From an uncultured Armatimonadetes bacterium (GTDB taxonomy: Bacteria > Armatimonadota > Fimbriimonadia > Fimbriimonadales > GBS-DC), in NCBI GenBank assembly GCA_937139515.1, contig CAKZQI010000030.1:1-27298 (forward strand): 27,298 bases of DNA, given 5' to 3'. The notes under the pieces were generated by a model. The model ran no database searches, was not told where the DNA came from, and saw only the letters and a list, made by a program, of their open reading frames with translations. The stretch's first letter is position 1. Each line of letters starts with the position of its first letter. The position numbers and the translations under genes were made by a program. Shown here in pieces: positions 207-23,763 of this stretch.

Positions 207-950
207 CTACCGAAAGCCCTGAACCAGCGCCTGCGCCAAAATGCCCCAACCGTTCGCCAGCGTGAACACCAACAACTTCGCCGGAAGCGACACAATCACC
301 GGGGGCAACATCATCATTCCCATCGAGAGCAGAATGCTCGCCACAATCAGGTCAATAATCAAAAACGGGATGAAGATGTAGAAGCCGATCAGAAAAGCGG
401 TCTTCAACTCGCTGAGAATGAAGGCGGGGATGAGCGTTGTGAGCGGCAGCTCGTCGGCAGTGCGTGGGGCGGGTTGCTTGCTGAGGCGGATGAACAGGTT
501 GAGGTCTTCGGTGTAGGTTTGGCGGAGCATAAAGGCGCGTACGGGCTTCTGAGCGCGCTGGGTCGCCTCTTGGAAAGTAATCTCTTGGCGCATATACGGC
601 TCCAGCGCTGTGCGGTTTATCTCGTCCAGCGTCGGCGCCATCACATAGAAGGTCAGGAACAGGCTCAGCCCTATCAGCACAGGGTTCGGCGGGATGTTGG
701 GCGTGCCTAACGCACTCTTGAGGAACGACAGCACAATCACAATCCGCGTGAACGCCGTCATCATCAACAGAATAGAGGGCGCCACCGAGAGCAAGGTCAA
801 CAGCGCCAGGATTTGAAGCGAGGTAGAGACCTCTTGTGGGTTGCGGGCGTTGCCGACCTCAACGCTCACGCGGGGCAGAGGCACGGTCTCCTGCGCCATC
901 AACGCAAGTGGAACCAGCCCCAAAACGATCACCCAAACCCAGCGGTTCAT
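207..950 (-). CDS. fliP: Flagellar biosynthesis protein FliP (type III export apparatus)
   Basis: 247 aa with a signal peptide. Conserved FliP block TAFTRIVIVLSFLKSALGT..PPNPVLIGLSLFLTFYVMAP and multi-TM architecture. Start overlaps the fliO stop (ATGA). Confidence 0.9.
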   Translation of the reverse strand: MNRWVWVIVLGLVPLALMAQETVPLPRVSVEVGNARNPQEVSTSLQILALLTLLSVAPSILLMMTAFTRIVIVLSFLKSALGTPNIPPNPVLIGLSLFLTFYVMAPTLDEINRTALEPYMRQEITFQEATQRAQKPVRAFMLRQTYTEDLNLFIRLSKQPAPRTADELPLTTLIPAFILSELKTAFLIGFYIFIPFLIIDLIVASILLSMGMMMLPPVIVSLPAKLLVFTLANGWGILAQALVQGFR

Positions 951-1513
951 ACGCCTCTCCCCAATAGCGTCTCCAGTTTCTGGCGGGTCTGTTGCAGGCG
1001 TGTTTGGACCTGCTGTTCCGTTTCGCGCTGGTAGTCCGAAGGGGGGCTATACGGCTGGGCGCGTCGGAGGGTTTGTTCAAAAGTGGCGTCGGCGGGAGCG
1101 GGGTTCGCTTCGGGCAGGGTGTCGGTCAGGTCAGCGATCAGTTGAAGCCCTTGCGGGGTACTGCCCACGAGGAGCAGTTTATCGCGCGCCTTGACCAGCA
1201 TCAGGCTCCCACCCGGCACCGCGCGGGTTTCAATCACCTTGACCTGTCCATCCACAGGGGAGCCGTTGCCCGTTTTGCTCGCCCAGCCGAGCAGTTTGGG
1301 CAAGCCGTAGCGTAGCCCGACGGCGACCACCCCCAGCGCCAGCGTCGCCTGAAGCCAGTTGAGCGAACCCCCTGAACTGGGCGGGGGCGCAATCCCGACG
1401 GGCGACCCTGTCCGCGTGCCGAACGCCCCCGGCTCCAGCGAAGCGTTCGGCTCCTGAGTCCACAGGCAGGCGACAAGCGCAATCCACAACCCTATTAGTG
1501 CGACGGTTCTCAT
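947..1513 (-). CDS. fliO: Flagellar biosynthesis protein FliO-like (single-TM, Pro/Gly-rich)
   Basis: 188 aa. One N-terminal TM helix then a Pro/Gly-rich region. It sits immediately between fliN/Y and fliP with 1-nt and 4-nt junctions, the canonical fliO position. The sequence itself is poorly conserved. Confidence 0.6.
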   Translation of the reverse strand: MRTVALIGLWIALVACLWTQEPNASLEPGAFGTRTGSPVGIAPPPSSGGSLNWLQATLALGVVAVGLRYGLPKLLGWASKTGNGSPVDGQVKVIETRAVPGGSLMLVKARDKLLLVGSTPQGLQLIADLTDTLPEANPAPADATFEQTLRRAQPYSPPSDYQRETEQQVQTRLQQTRQKLETLLGRGV

Positions 1514-1514
1514 C

Positions 1515-2459
1515 TTAGGCTCCTAACTTTTGCACGCGCTCGGCGGGCGAGAGGATTTCGGTGATACGCACAGCGAAGTTATCTTCCACCACGACCACCT
1601 CGCCCCGCGCAATCAGTTTGCCGTTGACCAGCACCTCAACGGGTTCGCCCGCCGTTTTATGAAGTTCAATGATAGACCCTGTGCCGATTTCCAGCAGTTC
1701 GCGCACTGCCAAGTTCACGCGCCCCAGCTCCACCGAGACCTCCAACGGGATGTCCAGTAGGAGGTCTAAGTTGCGTTCGGTGGGTTCCTCCGGCTCGGCG
1801 AACGGGTTGAACGCCATTGGCGTCGCTGTGGGGGCAGGCGTTTCGGGTTCGCTGAGGAGTGAGGCGAGCGGGTCATCTTGGGCAGGTTGCAAACCTAGCA
1901 AAGCGCGTGCCAGCCCCTCTGTGAGAAGCCAAGTGAGCGTGAACGGCGTGCGGTCTGGTATCTGAACCGTGAAGCGAGTGACGATTACCTCGTCCACAAT
2001 CAAGAAGTTGGGCGGGAAGGTCACCGGTTCGTGGTGCGCTTGGGGGTCAGCAGGGCTGAAAGCGGTATTGCGCAGGTTCCCGAACGCTATCGCCAAGCCT
2101 TGGCTAAGGTGTCCTGCGAACTCCTTGAACAGCTGGACGACGGTCTCGTCTATCGTTTCGCTCGGCGTGCCTGTGAGTGCCTCAATGAGCGCTTTTTCGG
2201 TCTCGGCGCGCTCGCTCATCTGGTCGCCCACGACAACCAGGCTCGGCTCATCAGACGCCTCACGGAAGCCAATCTGGGCGTACAACACCGGGTCGGCGGT
2301 GAGCAGGGTCAGGTCGGTGATGGGCACCGCTTGACTGGTGGGCGTCGGGATTTCCACCAGCACATTATTCTGCTCCGAGAGCTGCATCGCCACCGTCTGC
2401 CAGACGGTTTCTTGCTTGACCACGAACTGCGTTAGGACTTCGGGCTTCACCGTGCTCAC
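1515..2459 (-). CDS. fliN: Flagellar motor switch protein FliN/FliY (C-terminal SpoA/FliN domain with extended N-terminal domain)
   Basis: 314 aa. C-terminus LLLDIPLEVSVELGRVNLAVRELLEIGTGSIIELHKTAGEPVEVLVNGKLIARGEVVVVEDNFAVRITEI is the FliN surface-presentation domain. The long N-terminal region suggests a FliY-type protein. Confidence 0.85.
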   Translation of the reverse strand: MSTVKPEVLTQFVVKQETVWQTVAMQLSEQNNVLVEIPTPTSQAVPITDLTLLTADPVLYAQIGFREASDEPSLVVVGDQMSERAETEKALIEALTGTPSETIDETVVQLFKEFAGHLSQGLAIAFGNLRNTAFSPADPQAHHEPVTFPPNFLIVDEVIVTRFTVQIPDRTPFTLTWLLTEGLARALLGLQPAQDDPLASLLSEPETPAPTATPMAFNPFAEPEEPTERNLDLLLDIPLEVSVELGRVNLAVRELLEIGTGSIIELHKTAGEPVEVLVNGKLIARGEVVVVEDNFAVRITEILSPAERVQKLGA

Positions 2460-2462
2460 AGG

Positions 2463-3473
2463 CTAATCCTCCGTAACGATATCAGTAATGCTAACGACAT
2501 AGCGTCGGTTGCGGATGGCGGGTTTGCCACGATATTTCAGTTTATCTTCAATCAGCACATCAATCTTGCCGTTCGTTGGGGCATTGAGGACGAGCGTATC
2601 GCCCACTTTGAGTTCCAGTAGTTGTTTGAGGGTCATTCGGGTGCGCCCCAAGCGTGCGTGGCAGGTCATTCGGGTCTGCTTGAGGTGTTGGGTGAGCGCA
2701 TGGCGGATGTAGGGTGTGGTGCGCTTGCCTGAGGCAGAGACCCAGTTCTGCGAGCTGAGGCGTGGGGTAATCGGCTTGATGACCATGTGGGGCACACAGA
2801 GGCTCATCGCATCGCGTCGGTCGCCCACGCGTGCCTCCATCAGCGCAGTAATCACAATATCGCTGGGGGGCGCCACCTGAACGAACTGGGCGCTGGTCTC
2901 CAAACTCTCCACCTGCGGGTCCAGTTGCAAGATGCTCTCCCACGCACTACGAAACGCCATCAGCGCACGCTCTGCCAGCGCAATCACGAGGGGACGCTCT
3001 ATGTCGGTGAAGTTGTTGCGCTCAATCGGGCGCCCGACCCCTCCCAGCAGGCGGTCAATCAGCGTGAACACCAGCGAGTACTCCATCTCCAAAACCGACT
3101 CGCCCGTGAGGGGAGGCGAGGCGAAGATGATGAAGCACGACTCCTTGAGCGAGCGCATATAATCCTCGTAGGGGATTTGTTCCAGCGAGATAAGTTCAAT
3201 ATGCACGGGCACGCGTAGGTAGGTGGCGAAGTTGGTGGCGCACAGGCGGGCAAAGGTCTCAAATACCATTTGGAGGGTACGCAGTTGGTCACGCGAGAAC
3301 TTGTCGGGGCGTCGGAAGTCGTACACCTCGTAGGCGATCATGCGCTTCTGGTTGGCTCGCGTGCCGACCGGTGTCGCAGCGGGCGACCCAAAATCGGCTC
3401 CTGAGGAACCCTCGTCCGCACTCAGCGAGGCTAATAACGCCTCAATCTCGGCTTGCGAAAGAATCTCGCTCAC
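2463..3473 (-). CDS. fliM: Flagellar motor switch protein FliM
   Basis: 336 aa. N-terminal LSQAEIEALL CheY-P binding motif. FliM middle domain and a C-terminal FliN-like domain (GKIDVLIEDKLKYRGKPAI). Confidence 0.9.
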   Translation of the reverse strand: MSEILSQAEIEALLASLSADEGSSGADFGSPAATPVGTRANQKRMIAYEVYDFRRPDKFSRDQLRTLQMVFETFARLCATNFATYLRVPVHIELISLEQIPYEDYMRSLKESCFIIFASPPLTGESVLEMEYSLVFTLIDRLLGGVGRPIERNNFTDIERPLVIALAERALMAFRSAWESILQLDPQVESLETSAQFVQVAPPSDIVITALMEARVGDRRDAMSLCVPHMVIKPITPRLSSQNWVSASGKRTTPYIRHALTQHLKQTRMTCHARLGRTRMTLKQLLELKVGDTLVLNAPTNGKIDVLIEDKLKYRGKPAIRNRRYVVSITDIVTED

Positions 3474-3643: not shown

Positions 3644-3720
3644 AAGAAGCCTTGCGAGTGTGATTGAAATCACTGAAAAGGCGACCTTTTGTTAAGGTAG
3701 TTTTAGAGCGGAGGTGCACC

Positions 3721-4515
3721 ATGAACCTACCTGAACTCAGTTATGTGCAGTACTGGTTGGTGTACAATGCCTTTTCGTTTACCATAGCGGTGATGGCAGC
3801 GTCAGGGCTTTTCTTCCTGCTTGCCCGCAGCTATGTCGCCCCGAAGTACCATATTGCGCTCTATCTCTCCGCGTTAGTTGTGTTCATCGCTGGGTATCAC
3901 TACTTCCGCATCTTCCTGAGCTGGGATGAGGCGTACGATTTCAGCCAAGCCTCAGGAACCTATGTGCCCAGTGGTAAGCCGTTCAACGACTTCTATCGTT
4001 ATGCGGACTGGCTGATTACCGTACCGTTGCTTCTGACCGAGCTTATCTATGTGATGGCACTGCCTCGTGCGAAGGCGAATAGCCTCATCACCCGCTTGGT
4101 CATCGCGTCGGTGATTATGTTAGTGACCGGCTATCCTGGAGAGATAGCGCGCGACGATATGACGACCCGTCTCATCTGGTTCGTGCCCAGCACGCTGGCG
4201 TTCATCTACATCCTGTATGTGCTGGCGACGGAGCTGAACCGTGTGGTTGCTGAAGCGAAGTTCTCAGAAGCCGTCAACCGACGCATCTTCGCAGCGCGCA
4301 ACCTGACGATTATTACCTGGCTGTTCTATCCGATTGCCTATCTGGTGCCTGTGTTCGGCATTTCGGGTGCCACGGCTGAGGTAATCGTCCAGCTTGGCTA
4401 TAGCATCGCCGACCTGACCGCTAAGGCGCTGTTCGGCGTGATGCTCTACCTGATTGCTCGCGAGAAGACCCTGGCAGAAGAGCCAGAGTACGCTCGCACC
4501 GCCGCGACCCCGTAA
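3721..4515 (+). CDS. Microbial rhodopsin, xanthorhodopsin/Gloeobacter-rhodopsin-like proton pump (DTE motif)
   Basis: 7-TM protein. Helix C RYADWLITVPLLLTE gives a D/T/E proton-pump triad, and helix G has SIADLTAKALFG with the Schiff-base Lys. Strong similarity, recalled from memory, to Gloeobacter rhodopsin blocks (VYNAFSF, IAGYHYFRIF, TGYPGEI, YPIAYL). RBS GGAGGT sits 7 nt before the ATG at 3721. The upstream in-frame ATG at 3664 is probably not the start. Confidence 0.85.
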   Translation: MNLPELSYVQYWLVYNAFSFTIAVMAASGLFFLLARSYVAPKYHIALYLSALVVFIAGYHYFRIFLSWDEAYDFSQASGTYVPSGKPFNDFYRYADWLITVPLLLTELIYVMALPRAKANSLITRLVIASVIMLVTGYPGEIARDDMTTRLIWFVPSTLAFIYILYVLATELNRVVAEAKFSEAVNRRIFAARNLTIITWLFYPIAYLVPVFGISGATAEVIVQLGYSIADLTAKALFGVMLYLIAREKTLAEEPEYARTAATP

Positions 4516-4581: not shown

Positions 4582-5376
4582 ATGAAAAAGAATGGTTTTA
4601 CCCTTATAGAGCTGCTGGTCGTGATAGCGATTATAGCGATACTGGCGGCGATATTGTTCCCTGTATTTGCACAGGCTCGTGAACGGGCACGCTCGGCAAC
4701 CTGTCTCAGCAACCTGAAGCAGACCGCGCTCGCGACCAGCATGTATGTCCAAGACTATGATGAAACCTTCCCGGTGAATTTGTACCTGAACTTCCAGCCC
4801 AGCGGTACGCCGTGTGTGTTCTCGTTCTACCAAGCGATTTACCCCTACCAGAAGAGTGCAGAGGTGTGGGTCTGCCCTTCCAACCCGCAGGCAGTGGACA
4901 TTCAGCTTGCCTTCCAGCTGGTGCAGCTACCGCCTATCTGCCAACCTGCCTTGAAGTTCTACAGCTACGATTTCAACTTCGGGCTGATAGATTTCGGTGT
5001 GGATAACAATCTATTCCCTGGCACAGGTCGCGCTGTCAAGCGATTGGCTCAGATAGAGTACCCTGTTGAGACGGCGGTCATCTATGACGGTTCTATTGTG
5101 TTCCAAGGAGGACCGTTCAACCTGTTTGATACCCCGATTGAGGGGCGCCACGCAGAGTCAGCAAACGCGAACTATGTAGACGGACACACCAAAGTGGTGC
5201 GCCTGAGAAAGATGCTCGACTCGTCCGGACGATGGCTCTTTGGGCGTGCGATGGACAACCGATCCAATGTTTACGGTTGGCTGGTGTCCGACGGCGGTCC
5301 TTACAACGACCGCTATCAGATGCGGGGCATTCCGACACGCAACGCCGATGGCACTTGGGGCTTGATTGACCCCTGA
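4582..5376 (+). CDS. Prepilin-type N-terminal cleavage/methylation domain protein, H-X9-DG (DUF1559) family
   Basis: N-terminus [27 protein letters not shown] is a type IV pilin-like signal with G/F/E+5. C-terminal [12 protein letters not shown] matches the H-X9-DG motif. RBS AGGAGG precedes the ATG at 4582. Confidence 0.85.
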
Positions 5377-19248: not shown

Positions 19249-19977
19249 ATGAAGCAATCAATCGGCGACTGGGCACTGATCCAACAGACCGTATCGTGGG
19301 GCATCACCCTTACCCCACACCAGCTGAGCCAGCTGGAACGCTATCTGGAACGGCTTTATGAGACCAACCAGCAGTTCAACCTGACACGGGTGCCCCCTGA
19401 ACAGACGGTAGGACGCCACATTATCGACTCGCTCTGCTTGCTGGCTGTCGCTGAGTTTGCGGAGGGCGCACGCTTGCTGGACATCGGTACGGGCGCTGGA
19501 CTGCCCGGCATTCCTCTCGCTATCGTTCGTCCTGACCTGCAGGTGACCTTGCTCGACTCCCACGCGAAATCGGTGCGCTTCTTGGAGCAGGTCTGCCAAG
19601 AGTTAGGACTGAAGGCAATCGCCATCCACGCCCGCGCTGAGGAGTGGGCGCATAACTCCGCCGTGCGAGAGGGGTTTGACAGTGTCGTTGCCCGTGCCGT
19701 CGCCAAAATGCCCGTACTGGCAGAACTGATGCTCCCCTTCTTGAAAGTTGGCGGAACTGCCCTTGCCCTCAAGAGTATCCACGAACACGATGAGGTCCTC
19801 AGCGCCCACAAAGCGGTTGAGCAGTTGGGGGGTCAACTCTGCTTGCACGAGGTTCCTATCCAGGCCGAGCAAGGTACGCTCACACGCCTCATCGCGCGCA
19901 TCACCAAAACACACCCCACCCCCAGTGCATATCCCCGCCGTTGGAGCCTCATCACGAAACATCCCCTACACGAATGA
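19249..19977 (+). CDS. rsmG: 16S rRNA (guanine527-N7)-methyltransferase RsmG (GidB)
   Basis: Conserved blocks: YETNQQFNLTRV, GRHIIDSL, LLDIGTGAGLPGIPLAIVRPDLQVTLLDSHAKSVRFL and VVARAVAKMPVLAELMLPFLKVGGTALALKS. Located near oriC. Confidence 0.9.
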   Translation: MKQSIGDWALIQQTVSWGITLTPHQLSQLERYLERLYETNQQFNLTRVPPEQTVGRHIIDSLCLLAVAEFAEGARLLDIGTGAGLPGIPLAIVRPDLQVTLLDSHAKSVRFLEQVCQELGLKAIAIHARAEEWAHNSAVREGFDSVVARAVAKMPVLAELMLPFLKVGGTALALKSIHEHDEVLSAHKAVEQLGGQLCLHEVPIQAEQGTLTRLIARITKTHPTPSAYPRRWSLITKHPLHE

Positions 19978-21104
19978 GAGTCGCCATCGATGCCCGCCTG
20001 CTCACAGGAGCCTACACCGGAGACCGCACCTACTGGCGGGGCTTGCTGAGCGCCCTGAGCAAAATACTCCGCCCCGACCAAGACCGTCTCCTGCTTTTCT
20101 CAACGCGCCCTATCCCAGCGGGGACACTGCCTGAAAGCCCTATTTTTGAGCCAGTAGTTGTGCCTGCCCTTAGTGAACGCCTCTGGAGCCTCTTCCGATT
20201 GCCCGCTCTGGCTCGGCAACATCGGTGCGACCTTGCTCACACACAATACACCGTTTCACCTTTCTTTAGAATGCCCGTACTTACGACAGTTCACGATATT
20301 TCCTTTTTGGTCTACCCTGAGTGGTTTCCGCTCAAGGATCGGATACTCTTGCGATGGACAATCCCCGCCTCCTGCCGAAGGGCTTGCAGGGTTCTGACCG
20401 TCTCTGAGTCGTCGCGAGAAGACATACTGCGATACCTGAACCTTCCCTCTGAAAAAGTGATTGCCACGCCGAACGGACTCCCCGAAGGTTTCCACCCGAT
20501 ACCGAAAGCGGAGGCGCAGGCTTGGGTCGCCAAGCACTACAATATTCGTCTACCTTTCGCCTTGGCGGTGGGGGTACTCCAGCCCCGCAAGAACCTGCTC
20601 TTAGCGATTGAGGCGGTACATCTCGCCCGCGAAAAGTGTCCCGACTTGCAGTTGGTGCTGACGGGCAAATCGGGCTGGGGTCTCAAGGCGATTCGCACGG
20701 CGCGCCAAGCTCTGGGCGATACCCACTGGCTCATCGAAACGGGCTATGTGCCCGATGAGCATTTGGTCTGGCTGTACAACGCCTGCGAGGTGTTTTTGTA
20801 TCCCTCCTTTTACGAGGGCTTCGGGCTTCCGCCTTTGGAGGCGATGGCGTGCGGGTGCGCTGTGATTGCCTCCAACGGGGGGGCACTGCCCGAAGTGGTG
20901 CAGTCGGGAGGCATCCTGCTTCCCCCCACCGAACCCGGCATGTGGATGGAAGCCATTCTCACCCTCCTGCAAAATCCGTCCTACCGAGAGAGGCTTCAGG
21001 CACAGGCGTTGGAGCAGGCGAAGCGGTTCCGCTGGGAGCAGACCGCCCAACGCACCCTGCAAGCTTATCAAGCTTGCCTCGAGTTATCCACAAATTGTGG
21101 ATAA
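19974..21104 (+). CDS. GT4-family glycosyltransferase (glycosyl transferase group 1)
   Basis: Starts MRVAIDARLL. Has the C-terminal GT4 motif FLYPSFYEGFGLPPLEAMACGCAVIASNGGALPEVV. Its ATG overlaps the rsmG stop (ATGA). Confidence 0.85.
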   Translation: MRVAIDARLLTGAYTGDRTYWRGLLSALSKILRPDQDRLLLFSTRPIPAGTLPESPIFEPVVVPALSERLWSLFRLPALARQHRCDLAHTQYTVSPFFRMPVLTTVHDISFLVYPEWFPLKDRILLRWTIPASCRRACRVLTVSESSREDILRYLNLPSEKVIATPNGLPEGFHPIPKAEAQAWVAKHYNIRLPFALAVGVLQPRKNLLLAIEAVHLAREKCPDLQLVLTGKSGWGLKAIRTARQALGDTHWLIETGYVPDEHLVWLYNACEVFLYPSFYEGFGLPPLEAMACGCAVIASNGGALPEVVQSGGILLPPTEPGMWMEAILTLLQNPSYRERLQAQALEQAKRFRWEQTAQRTLQAYQACLELSTNCG

Positions 21105-21382
21105 CTCCGTGTGGATAACCGATTCACGCCCCTCCGCGCCGAGTTATCCACAGGTTATCCACAAGTTATCCACAGAGTTATCCACAATTGCTTAGCTCGG
21201 CTAATTAACCAGCAAGTCAGCTCTAAAAAGGTGCATTTTGAACTCAAAATCGGTGCCAGAGCGCACCCATATTATACCGACCGACGGGTCGAAAAGCCGA
21301 GTTATCCACAATTCCACATCCCTAATAATTACAATGACTCTCTCTATAGGAAGGGAATCGAATTGTGGTTGGGTGTGGATAA
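21084..21382. other. Chromosomal replication origin (oriC) core: 8 perfect DnaA boxes TTATCCACA/TGTGGATAA plus AT-rich stretches
   Basis: Perfect 9-mers at 21084-21092 (+), 21097-21105 (-), 21110-21118 (-), 21144-21152, 21155-21163, 21166-21174, 21178-21186 (four tandem, 11-12 bp apart), 21302-21310 (+) and 21374-21382 (-). AT-rich segments lie at 21228-21250, 21268-21282 and 21318-21348. rsmG (gidB) is adjacent. Confidence 0.85.
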
Positions 21383-21532
21383 CTCGCTGAGACCCCCAGA
21401 GGGCCTACAAGCCCATAGAGAGCAAGAAAGCAGTAGAAGTCTCTGAGAGAAACTTATGCAGAATGTCCTCAACTGTAAAGCCAAGCAGTAACACCCAACA
21501 GCGAGTTTTAGTTCAATACGAAAAGCCCACTT

Positions 21533-21603
21533 GTCACCCTGAGCGTTAGCGAAGGGTCTCTACTTCGGGTGGCACCGAGATTCTTCGCTTCGCTCAGGAT
21601 GAC
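21533..21603. repeat. 71-bp palindromic element with 13-bp terminal inverted repeats (GTCACCCTGAGCG...CGCTCAGGATGAC), full copy
   Basis: Arms CCTGAGCGTTAGCGAAGGGTCTC and its near-reverse-complement GAGATTCTTCGCTTCGCTCAGG flank an 18-bp core. Related copies lie at 3574-3643 and 115-143. Confidence 0.6.
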
Positions 21604-21679
21604 ATATCGGGGTAAGGACTGACGAGAGGGCATCAAAGTGTGAGTAGGTTGGACAATTATGAACTCAGGGAATCTCTCC

Positions 21680-21707
21680 TTGTCAGGGATACCTGAAGGG
21701 GTATAAT
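21680..21707 (+). promoter_or_regulatory. Sigma-70-type promoter (TTGTCA-16-TATAAT) for the 21733 gene
   Basis: -35 TTGTCA at 21680-21685, -10 TATAAT at 21702-21707. RBS GGAGGT lies about 8 nt before the ATG at 21733. Confidence 0.55.
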
Positions 21708-21732
21708 CCCCACCGATGGAGGTAATGACGGA

Positions 21733-22404
21733 ATGGGTTGGTTGACCCCCGATTTTCGCACGATGCTTCAAGACCGTTTGCGCGATTTGCAGATGGAAGT
21801 CCGTGCGGAAGGGGTGAGATTGGGTGAACTGCGCAAAATCAACAAAGACTTCGCCAACGCCTACCGCTTCAAGTGGATGCGCGTGTTATACAAGGAACCG
21901 CTCAAACTGCGCTTAGAGTCGGAGGTGCTCTCACGGCGCATCACCTATGTGCTGAATGGAGGCACAAAACTGGTCACTGCGCCCGGCGAGCGCATCCGAG
22001 AGGATGTCTCTAACTCTCCTGGCAAACGCCAGACCTCTATGGACTTTGGTTTTATTACCCCTGCGTTGGCGCGTCAGCTGGATGTGAAGTTTTTGCGTGA
22101 AGAGCGGGTGGATGGCGTAGTACTTCCTGTGTTTCAGTTAGAGTGGAACTACGGCGATGACGATGCACGCCACATCGTGTGGATGGACCCCGAAAAGAAA
22201 TATATCGTGCGACGCGTGTGGTACAGCCGAACAGGAACCTACCGTGCGCGCTTTGAGCATAAAGAACCTGTGCAGGGCGCGCCGGGCATCTGGATCCCCT
22301 CCCGCATCGAGGTCTACAACAGAGACCAGCGATTCGGCGGGCGCACGGTCAACAGCAACATCAAGGTCAATCAGGGCTTAGATGACTCCCTCTTCAGCGT
22401 CTAA
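21733..22404 (+). CDS. Hypothetical protein, possibly LolA-like/outer-membrane lipoprotein-sorting fold
   Basis: 223 aa with a strong promoter and RBS. Beta-rich composition; the C-terminal ...KVNQGLDDSLFSV resembles LolA-like domain endings. No N-terminal signal peptide is evident. Confidence 0.35.
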   Translation: MGWLTPDFRTMLQDRLRDLQMEVRAEGVRLGELRKINKDFANAYRFKWMRVLYKEPLKLRLESEVLSRRITYVLNGGTKLVTAPGERIREDVSNSPGKRQTSMDFGFITPALARQLDVKFLREERVDGVVLPVFQLEWNYGDDDARHIVWMDPEKKYIVRRVWYSRTGTYRARFEHKEPVQGAPGIWIPSRIEVYNRDQRFGGRTVNSNIKVNQGLDDSLFSV

Positions 22405-23222: not shown

Positions 23223-23429
23223 ATGACTTCTCTGGAACGGATGATACGGGAACTCCCGCCTGAGGCGCAACGCAGTGTTTGGGAGTTCGTAGAATACTTG
23301 CACACAAAATACACTGCCCCCAAGCAAGGCAAACTGCGCTTTGAATGGCAGGGCGCCCTAGAACCCCTGCGTGAGCAATACACCTCCGTGCAACTCCAAC
23401 ACGAGATGCTGAAGGAGTGGAATGATTGA
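23223..23429 (+). CDS. DUF2281-family antitoxin-like protein
   Basis: 68 aa. MIRELPPEAQRSVWEFVEYL matches the DUF2281 N-terminal pattern. RBS AAGAGGTG. Local GC content is clearly below the window average. Confidence 0.55.
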   Translation: MTSLERMIRELPPEAQRSVWEFVEYLHTKYTAPKQGKLRFEWQGALEPLREQYTSVQLQHEMLKEWND

Positions 23430-23596
23430 AATATCTTATTGACACCAACATCGTTCTGGAAGTCTTGCTTAATCAGTCGCGTGCGGCTGAATGGTTTGGA
23501 CTTGATGACGCGTATCGATATGCACTTACAGAACATTATGACTTATTGATTGTGAGTTTTGATAGCGATTTTGACCGCACACAACAAGGGCGCTAA
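23426..23596 (+). pseudogene. Remnant PIN-domain (VapC-like) toxin with internal deletion
   Basis: TTG start overlaps the antitoxin stop (TTGA). Translation (L)KYLIDTNIVLEVLLNQSRAAEWF|GLDDAYRYALTEHYDLLIVSFDSDFDRTQQGR has a PIN N-terminus (IDTN with the first catalytic Asp) fused directly to the PIN C-terminus (LLIVSFDSDF). About 70 central residues are missing, leaving 56 aa. Confidence 0.5.
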
Positions 23597-23717
23597 GAGC
23601 CGAGCGACCTGTAGCGCGTCTATCTGACGCCTGTTTTGATCGACTCCCAAACCACTTGAGTGACTTGTCTCTTAAGCTGAGAGAGATCGCCACATTTCTC
23701 AACACCCTCAATCCCGC

Positions 23718-23748
23718 TTGAAATCGGGTGTCTCCTTAAGGGTATACT
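23718..23748 (+). promoter_or_regulatory. Promoter for tRNA-Cys (TTGAAA-19-TATACT)
   Basis: -35 TTGAAA at 23718-23723, -10 TATACT at 23743-23748 within a GGGTATACT motif. This is about 15 nt upstream of the tRNA 5' end. Confidence 0.45.
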
Positions 23749-23763
23749 ATCTCTACTCCAAGA

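Follow-up and report, generated by a model that had tools for sequence, protein, structure and literature searches.

The window analysed here is the whole of a 27,298-nt stretch (contig CAKZQI010000030.1, positions 1 to 27,298 of the forward strand) from an uncultured Armatimonadetes bacterium of the order Fimbriimonadales, and the subject is a dense cluster of DnaA boxes at 21084-21386, examined as a candidate chromosomal replication origin (oriC). The cluster lies between a glycosyltransferase gene and a gene for a LolA-like lipoprotein and contains the elements listed below, with the two flanking regions given last.

21084-21118: left box module, with perfect boxes at 21084-21092 (+), 21096-21104 (-) and 21110-21118 (-)
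21144-21186, + strand: tandem array of four head-to-tail GTTATCCACA boxes, starting at 21144, 21155, 21166 and 21178
21200-21208: spacer motif GCTAA(A/T/C)TAA, after the array
21235-21250: palindrome ATTTTGA-NN-TCAAAAT, 16 bp, AT-rich (ATTTTGAACTCAAAAT)
21302-21322, + strand: box pair resembling that of the basal unwinding system (BUS) of B. subtilis, with a box at 21302-21310, AT, the weak core TCCACA at 21313-21318 and the GC cluster TCCC at 21319-21322
21322-21373: candidate DNA-unwinding element between two inward-facing boxes, containing the least stable 25-mer of the region
21374-21386, - strand: terminal inverted box, perfect (TGTGGATAA on the + strand), followed by conserved CTCG
19249-21104, + strand: left flank, with rsmG (gidB; 19249-19977; TIGR00138) and then a GT4 glycosyltransferase (GT) gene (19974-21104), assigned by Pfam, NCBIfam and tblastn
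21680-22404, + strand: right flank, with the promoter-like TTGTCA-16-TATAAT (21680-21707) and the LolA-like lipoprotein gene (21733-22404)

The DnaA-box cluster and its non-coding core

Exact copies of TTATCCACA occur ten times in the window, and nine of these fall in 21084-21382, with plus-strand boxes starting at 21084, 21144, 21155, 21166, 21178 and 21302 and minus-strand boxes at 21096, 21110 and 21374. In dinucleotide shuffles of the whole window the same sequence appeared 0.12 times on average and at most once, so that nine boxes in 300 bp, compared with 0.12 per 27 kb, is far above chance for a stretch of non-coding DNA. A preliminary description of this DNA had counted eight perfect boxes; the dense cluster is confirmed, and the count is corrected to nine. 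All nine are copies of the 10-mer GTTATCCACA, most are preceded by GAG or CGAG, and the two ends of the cluster form 13-bp perfect inverted repeats, CGAGTTATCCACA and TGTGGATAACTCG. The tenth perfect TTATCCACA stands alone at 4998-5006 (-), inside a DUF1559/N-methyl (type IV pilin-like) gene, and is probably a chance occurrence because the shuffles yield up to one perfect site per window.

The four tandem boxes at 21144-21186, described previously as spaced by 11-12 bp, are indeed present at exact start-to-start spacings of 11/11/12 bp, or about one helical turn, and are a candidate array for DnaA oligomerisation. Tandem arrays of GTTATCCACA similar to 21141-21186 are also found in several phages, among them Shigella phage VB_Ship_A7, Escherichia phage P483 and, inside the gene for the replication initiator, microviruses. 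In the left module, the boxes at 21084-21092 and 21096-21104 together make up the palindrome GAGTTATCCACAAATTGTGGATAACTC. This module overlaps the final codons and stop codon of the GT4 gene, with the stop codon inside the box at 21096-21104. Because the GT gene ends inside the first boxes, boxes of the putative origin overlap coding sequence. The last eight codons and stop of this gene (LELSTNCG*) are encoded by the palindromic box pair (window 21081-21107), and in four relatives introduced below (L008, L134, L136 and L094) the GT gene likewise extends to the first box of the cluster.

The 21084-21386 core had no protein-family match, and its conservation follows no codon pattern, with indels of 1-2 nt among relatives; Rfam searches returned zero matches in the cluster region. 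Two open reading frames (ORFs) at 21111-21446 (+) and 21508-21771 (-) likewise gave no family matches and no codon-like conservation, and were treated as non-coding. The only terminator-like hairpin, at 21252-21267 (-), was set aside, as it is not conserved in the sister species L008. GC content falls to ~0.49 across 21001-21750. The preliminary description had called the AT-rich stretches here the only ones of the region, which does not hold, since 23251-23750 has a similarly low GC content (0.486).

Conservation across Fimbriimonadales and the gene neighbourhood

Related loci were collected in two scans, the first covering one genome per GTDB species with a pattern of three G-extended boxes and the second covering JGI metagenomes with a lineage-specific box pattern. 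Homologous clusters turned up in other Fimbriimonadales/Armatimonadota species or strains, at least seven of them. The eight cores compared are those of the window; L008/L063 (GCA_046718995.1), a sister species whose GT is 84% identical to that of the window; L134/L135, from a third species in the genus of the window; L136 and L094/L138 (Armatimonadota DT_Bin_30); L025, a Fimbriimonadales metagenome-assembled genome (MAG); L085/L133, 'Armatimonadetes bacterium DC'; and L137. Contigs of identical species are present in hot-spring metagenomes (JGI 3300010288 and 3300025104; ENA ERZ27245459). MAGs with the core are GCA_046718995.1, GCA_039630445.1, CAZQPV01 and LDYB01, the last being 'Armatimonadetes bacterium DC'. 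A single locus was matched per GTDB genome, among the matches listed.

When placed in a common orientation, all eight cores carry boxes at offsets of 0/12/24-26, ~60/71/82/94, 215-220 and 289-292. Variation is seen in the array, which has five boxes in L134 and one degenerate box in L008, L025, L085 and L137, and to the first box of the left module, which is flipped in the window's genus relative to the other cores. Identity between the window and its relatives is 84-100% in box columns, 54-79% in non-box columns of the core and 19-56% to the right of 21386, and GT protein identity to the window is 68-84% in the four relative lineages with the gene. The box at 21374-21382 and its CTCG form the right edge of the conserved core. 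Beyond the last box on the right, the DNA of the relatives could not be aligned, and in L008 the intergenic identity is very high from first to last box and then collapses directly to the right. The right flank at 21680-22404 is outside the conserved core and no part of the origin. A nested inverted repeat at 21532-21604 (within 21400-21730; outer arms TGTCACCCTGAGCG...CGCTCAGGATGACA, inner arms AGCGAAGGGTCTC/GAGATTCTTCGCT) sits in a stretch that is largely missing from L008 and looks like a small MITE/REP-type insertion.

Several elements other than the boxes are also retained. In the alignment of the cores (alignment A3), the palindrome at 21235-21250 shows no variation, the GCTAA and TAA columns of the spacer motif are invariant, as are the TCCACA that follows the solitary forward box after 2-3 nt, the GC cluster after it, and the right end TTG..TGTGGATAACT. 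The palindrome lies about midway between the tandem array and the solitary forward box, ~50 bp from each, is unique in the window even when 2 mismatches are allowed, and was found once in every homologous core and in 0/126 other loci. It may serve as the binding site of a dimeric regulator or an architectural protein. Inspection of the core by eye revealed no IHF (WATCAANNNNTTR), CtrA (TTAA-N7-TTAA), parS or GATC motifs.

Dense box clusters were also surveyed outside the order. Of 62 genome loci spread over many phyla that have ≥8 perfect boxes in 400 bp, 37 had dnaA or dnaN in the same chunk (≤8 kb), compared with only 3 of 32 loci with 3-4 boxes. A further box array, in L065 (4117-4170; Armatimonas/Armatimonadota), was rejected as an origin; because it lies inside a long ORF, it is a coding repeat, and its mimicry of a DnaA-box array calls for caution with box-based origin finders. 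Three GAGTTATCCACAGG units at exact 21-bp spacing make up this stretch of L065 and occur also at L080 6256-6309 and L131 783-833.

The genes to the left of the cluster in the window are, in order, fliMNOP, a rhodopsin gene, an Mrp antiporter operon, rsmG and the GT4 gene, and beyond the LolA-like gene are a methyltransferase gene, tRNA-Cys and the NAGPA and NamZ genes. The rhodopsin gene (Bac_rhodopsin, 283 aa; 3664-4515) is divergent beside fliM-fliN-fliO-fliP (207-3473). The preliminary description had placed rsmG immediately upstream of the cluster; the GT4 gene intervenes, leaving this origin indicator gene near the cluster, one gene away. The rsmG-GT pair also flanks the cluster in L008, L134, L136 and L094/L138. 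On the other side the neighbour varies by lineage, being LolA-like in the window's genus and recF in L136 and L094; in L025, L085 and L137 the cluster is flanked by genes for an M48 peptidase and a hybrid histidine kinase, with dnaB 2 kb away in L085.

Such changes of neighbour bear on whether the cluster might be a DnaA-controlled promoter or operator of the GT, LolA-like or recF gene. DnaA does act as a transcription factor at box clusters, for example at P. aeruginosa gidAB-parAB (PMC13438810), and here the GT gene ends within the left boxes. Because the cluster persists while its neighbours change, however, it does not appear to be the regulatory site of one particular gene. The core also contains no sigma-70-like promoter, the LolA-like gene has a promoter-like site of its own 300 bp further on and outside the conserved block, and nine perfect boxes with conserved long-range spacing go far beyond the needs of an operator. 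We regard this explanation as very improbable.

A wider view of the L094 contig, L138, shows the order mnmG ... rsmG-GT-[cluster]-recF-dciA-comEC, in which RecF (TIGR00611, 337 bits) and MnmG (TIGR00136, 800 bits) both score above the NCBIfam cut-offs. At bacterial origins, dnaA-dnaN are usually accompanied by recF-dciA and gidA-gidB (see also PMC4072686). Because mnmG/rsmG and recF-dciA surround it in L138, the cluster occupies the place of a canonical origin from which dnaA and dnaN are missing.

Neither dnaA nor dnaN was detected in the 27.3-kb window by tblastn with E. coli DnaA and DnaN queries, in agreement with the earlier statement that no dnaA is nearby, and neither gene was found near the cluster in the examined flanks of any relative. 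In two related lineages dnaN stands without dnaA, at L139 17151-18239 (beside PEPCK and GT9 genes) and at L140/L141 10001-11092 (beside uvrC and DsrE/TusA genes), with no dnaA within 6-10 kb and no box cluster in either region. With dnaA missing from these stretches, the canonical dnaA-dnaN pair is broken up across the order. The one genome of the class that is complete has few consensus boxes, a jagged skew and scattered dnaA, dnaN, recF and gyrB genes (PMC4072686). An origin unlinked to dnaA would fit the lineage, given the lone dnaN in L139 and L140/L141 and the scattered genes of the complete genome. A separate group of 371-aa DnaN clamps, 65-69% identical to the Fimbriimonadales DnaN query, was also noted; one member, P0228 (L142 10001-11116), lies among Phage_tail_S, helix-turn-helix regulator and N6_N4 methyltransferase genes and is apparently borne by a phage or prophage.

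When the LolA-like gene was followed to further relatives, it was found after ruvX in L005-L007, without boxes, and no boxes were present in L004 either. When rsmG-GT was followed instead, F. ginsengisoli (L011) and Chthonomonas (L012) showed neither synteny nor boxes. Because flanking genes occur without the cluster in L005, L009 and L139, the cluster lies at synteny breakpoints, which are common around origins but are no proof of one. Breakpoints could also be left by a mobile box-bearing element, or by an integrated plasmid, phage or other secondary replicon whose origin this would be, and both the 13-bp perfect inverted repeats at the cluster ends and the existence of tandem DnaA-box arrays in some phages point in that direction. 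The terminal inverted repeat is not conserved, however, with the left-most box flipped in 5/8 cores, and the neighbourhood has no rep, integrase, transposase or partition gene, consisting instead of housekeeping genes (flagellar, Mrp, rsmG, tRNA and cell-wall). Matches to plasmids and phages were short and limited to the tandem-box stretch, never covering the whole core, and each matched GTDB genome has one copy, among the matches listed. An origin of this kind is the least probable of the explanations considered.

The candidate unwinding module

Of all 25-mers in the region, 21323-21347 is the least stable; it starts right after the GC cluster of the box pair. Its nearest-neighbour dG is -25.9 kcal/mol, compared with a window mean of -36.2 (sd 2.8; z = 3.6), and it ranks third least stable in the whole window, so that by predicted stability an unstable AT-rich element does lie beside the boxes. 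The least stable 25-mer of the core falls in the same aligned interval in 7/9 homologous loci, and in 4 loci this interval is the stability minimum of the entire locus. The inverted perfect box at 21374-21382 ends the 63-bp segment.

This arrangement was compared with the BUS module defined by Richardson 2019 and Pelliciari 2021, for which the published rule requires a box with ≤2 mismatches (usually in a tandem pair whose stronger member is distal), a spacer of 0-16 bp (mode 10-13) and ≥3 NAN trios. Polarity was taken from the B. subtilis scaffold oligonucleotides, 5'-TTATCCACA-AA-TCCACA-GGCC/CTA CTA TTA CTT CTA CTA, in which the trios are on the complementary strand, 5' of the box read as TGTGGATAA (PMC8287927 supplement). 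The window reads 5'-TTATCCACA-AT-TCCACA-TCC/CTA ATA ATT ACA... at 21302-21333, and its box part agrees at nearly every base with this experimentally defined scaffold. The pair is thus oriented so that TTATCCACA points to the presumptive unwinding site, with the orientation and spacing of B. subtilis boxes #6/#7, and the short GC-rich spacer (11 nt, ending TCC(C)) is within the 16-bp limit. The string CGAGTTATCCACA..TCCACA.C.C is without variation in 8/8 cores, and the GC cluster in these cores follows the conserved pattern (T/G/C/A)C(C/G)C(C). On the minus strand there is a minimal trio run, 5'-AAT TAT TAG-3' (complement of + 21322-21330), and a scan with the BUS rule gave matches here in the window and L134 only, or 2/8 cores (spacer 11; AAT TAT TAG).

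A different trio tract had been proposed in the preliminary description. The sequence TAGAGAGCAAGAAAGCAGTAGAAG is present at 21416-21439 as claimed, but its reading as DnaA-trios or as an unwinding element was rejected. Under the polarity of PMC8287927, it is on the side opposite to that demanded by the orientation of the box at 21374-21382, and it starts 33 bp beyond this box, where the published rule allows ≤16 bp. Whichever frame is read, a majority of its triplets have a middle base other than A. The tract has been lost by deletion in L008, the other relatives do not conserve it, and the BUS-rule scan never matched it.

Taken together, the conserved architecture, the origin-type neighbours in relatives and the B. 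subtilis-like pair beside the least stable DNA support the reading of 21084-21386 as an oriC, and with it the earlier proposal of a chromosomal origin unlinked to dnaA and dnaN. Several observations weigh against this reading. In the window the GC skew is positive on both sides of the cluster (left +0.012, right +0.023). In the relatives it is no higher on the left flank than on the right, as expected of an origin, though the skews are small and some flanking genes are shared between loci; these data are from contigs or excerpts 5-27 kb long. Transcription of the Mrp operon, rsmG and the GT gene runs towards the cluster, and because of this orientation a leftward fork would meet Mrp-rsmG-GT head-on. 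The remaining 6/8 cores carry at most two trios at the position homologous to the window's run, and three-trio matches are fairly frequent by chance, with 17 allowed spacers per box. L009/L010 and L139 have rsmG-GT with no boxes there, and the position of the cluster is accordingly not fixed. Finally, DnaA-box clusters that are not origins are known, such as E. coli datA and the DnaA-box clusters (DBCs) of B. subtilis (PMC3245932).

The last point introduces the main rival, namely that the window holds a non-origin cluster of the datA or B. subtilis DBC type that titrates or inactivates DnaA, with the real origin elsewhere, for example near dnaA. Such clusters can hold many consensus boxes (PMC3245932), and the constant skew sign and the head-on genes to the left also speak for this rival. 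A titration site has no need, however, of a box pair, GC cluster and stability minimum held in conserved register. In L138, moreover, the cluster lies between mnmG/rsmG and recF-dciA, the dnaN regions of two related lineages have no boxes, and one locus was matched per GTDB genome, among the matches listed. On balance this rival is considered unlikely, though less so than the two above, and 21084-21386 is very probably the chromosomal replication origin of this Fimbriimonadales (Armatimonadota) bacterium.

Interpretation and comparison with known systems

Judged by sequence, the element would be a dnaA-unlinked oriC, a kind that is already known, and it displays the sequence-level features of an oriC that could be assessed here. 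What is new is modest: conservation of a 300-bp architecture across an order for which no origin was known, an origin that would remain next to gidAB and recF-dciA in the absence of dnaA-dnaN, and boxes that overlap the end of a coding gene together with an invariant palindrome.

In the scheme that we infer for DnaA binding, opening, looping, the palindrome and DciA, DnaA encoded elsewhere in the genome would bind the nine high-affinity GTTATCCACA boxes, the four helically phased boxes and the three-box left module serving as a platform for DnaA loading and oligomerisation. At ~115 bp to the right of this platform, the pair TTATCCACA-AT-TCCACA (21302-21318) and its GC cluster would direct DnaA-ATP rightwards onto the minus strand of 21322 to ~21350, the least stable DNA, where the duplex would open; the inverted box at 21374-21382 would close the opening segment. 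The palindrome at 21235-21250 probably binds a bending/architectural or regulatory protein, and DciA, whose gene is next to the cluster in L138, would serve as the helicase loader. Further, and only tentatively, the palindrome could be the target of an origin-specific Fimbriimonadales regulator or DNA-bending factor, a counterpart of IHF, CtrA or Spo0A sites, with opening inside a short segment clamped by two convergent boxes and a DnaA-DciA system whose genes are dispersed from the origin; this combination is possible rather than likely.

No origin could be recognised in the one genome analysis published for the class (PMC4072686), and the present analysis offers a concrete, comparatively validated oriC model for one order of Armatimonadota. 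A B. subtilis-type pair and GC cluster persist, nearly unchanged in sequence, in a phylum that branches deeply and is mostly uncultured, which supports the idea of an ancient unwinding module, and the locus provides an example of an origin that would have kept its place next to gidA/gidB and recF-dciA as dnaA and dnaN relocated. The conserved core could be used for replichore assignment, for peak-to-trough growth estimates of hot-spring MAGs and for shuttle-vector design.

Among known systems, datA and the B. subtilis DBCs share with the window the presence of box clusters away from dnaA, but have no box pair, GC cluster or unwinding segment and are not located between mnmG/rsmG and recF-dciA. 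Dense arrays of perfect TTATCCACA also occur in Deinococcota and Chloroflexota (many Deinococcus, Truepera, Meiothermus and Chloroflexia loci with the same pattern). For many Deinococcota loci the chunk includes dnaA and/or dnaN, whereas the Meiothermus and Chloroflexia loci have neither; beyond the boxes, no similarity to the window core was seen in these loci, and the palindrome is absent.

The E. coli oriC, located between mnmG/gidA and mioC, resembles the window in being apart from dnaA and in its gidA-gidB neighbourhood. Its high-affinity boxes R1/R4 likewise read GTTATCCACA. The E. coli R5M-I2 and C3-C1 arrays consist of same-orientation sites at 11-bp phasing (background in PMC10316083). 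The window shares a phased array of this type and has a conserved element between its box groups where E. coli has an IHF site. All nine sites in the window are consensus, whereas E. coli has few strong and many weak sites, and the window has no 13-mer repeats, no GATC clusters and no site matching the IHF consensus. Its candidate unwinding element lies inside the cluster, flanked by convergent boxes, and that of E. coli at the edge, and rsmG and the GT gene are transcribed towards the putative origin in the window, with transcription away from the origin in E. coli.

The other system compared is the incC module of the B. subtilis oriC (BUS: box#6/#7, GC cluster, DnaA-trios and AT-rich 27-mer). 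Unlike in B. subtilis, the AT-rich segment of the window is short and closed by an inverted box, and the origin is not bipartite around dnaA. Box-proximal NAN trios number at most three in the window (TAG, TAT, AAT) and six in B. subtilis, and the spacers are 11 and 12 nt, respectively. Distal boxes lie upstream in the window, as they do in B. subtilis incC (PMC6669920), and both modules consist of a strong box, 2 nt, the weak box TCCACA, a GC cluster of 4-5 nt and AT-rich DNA, reading TTATCCACA-AT-TCCACA-TCCC-TAATAATT in the window and TTATCCACA-AA-TCCACA-GGCCC-TACTATTAC in B. subtilis (PMC8287927 supplement).

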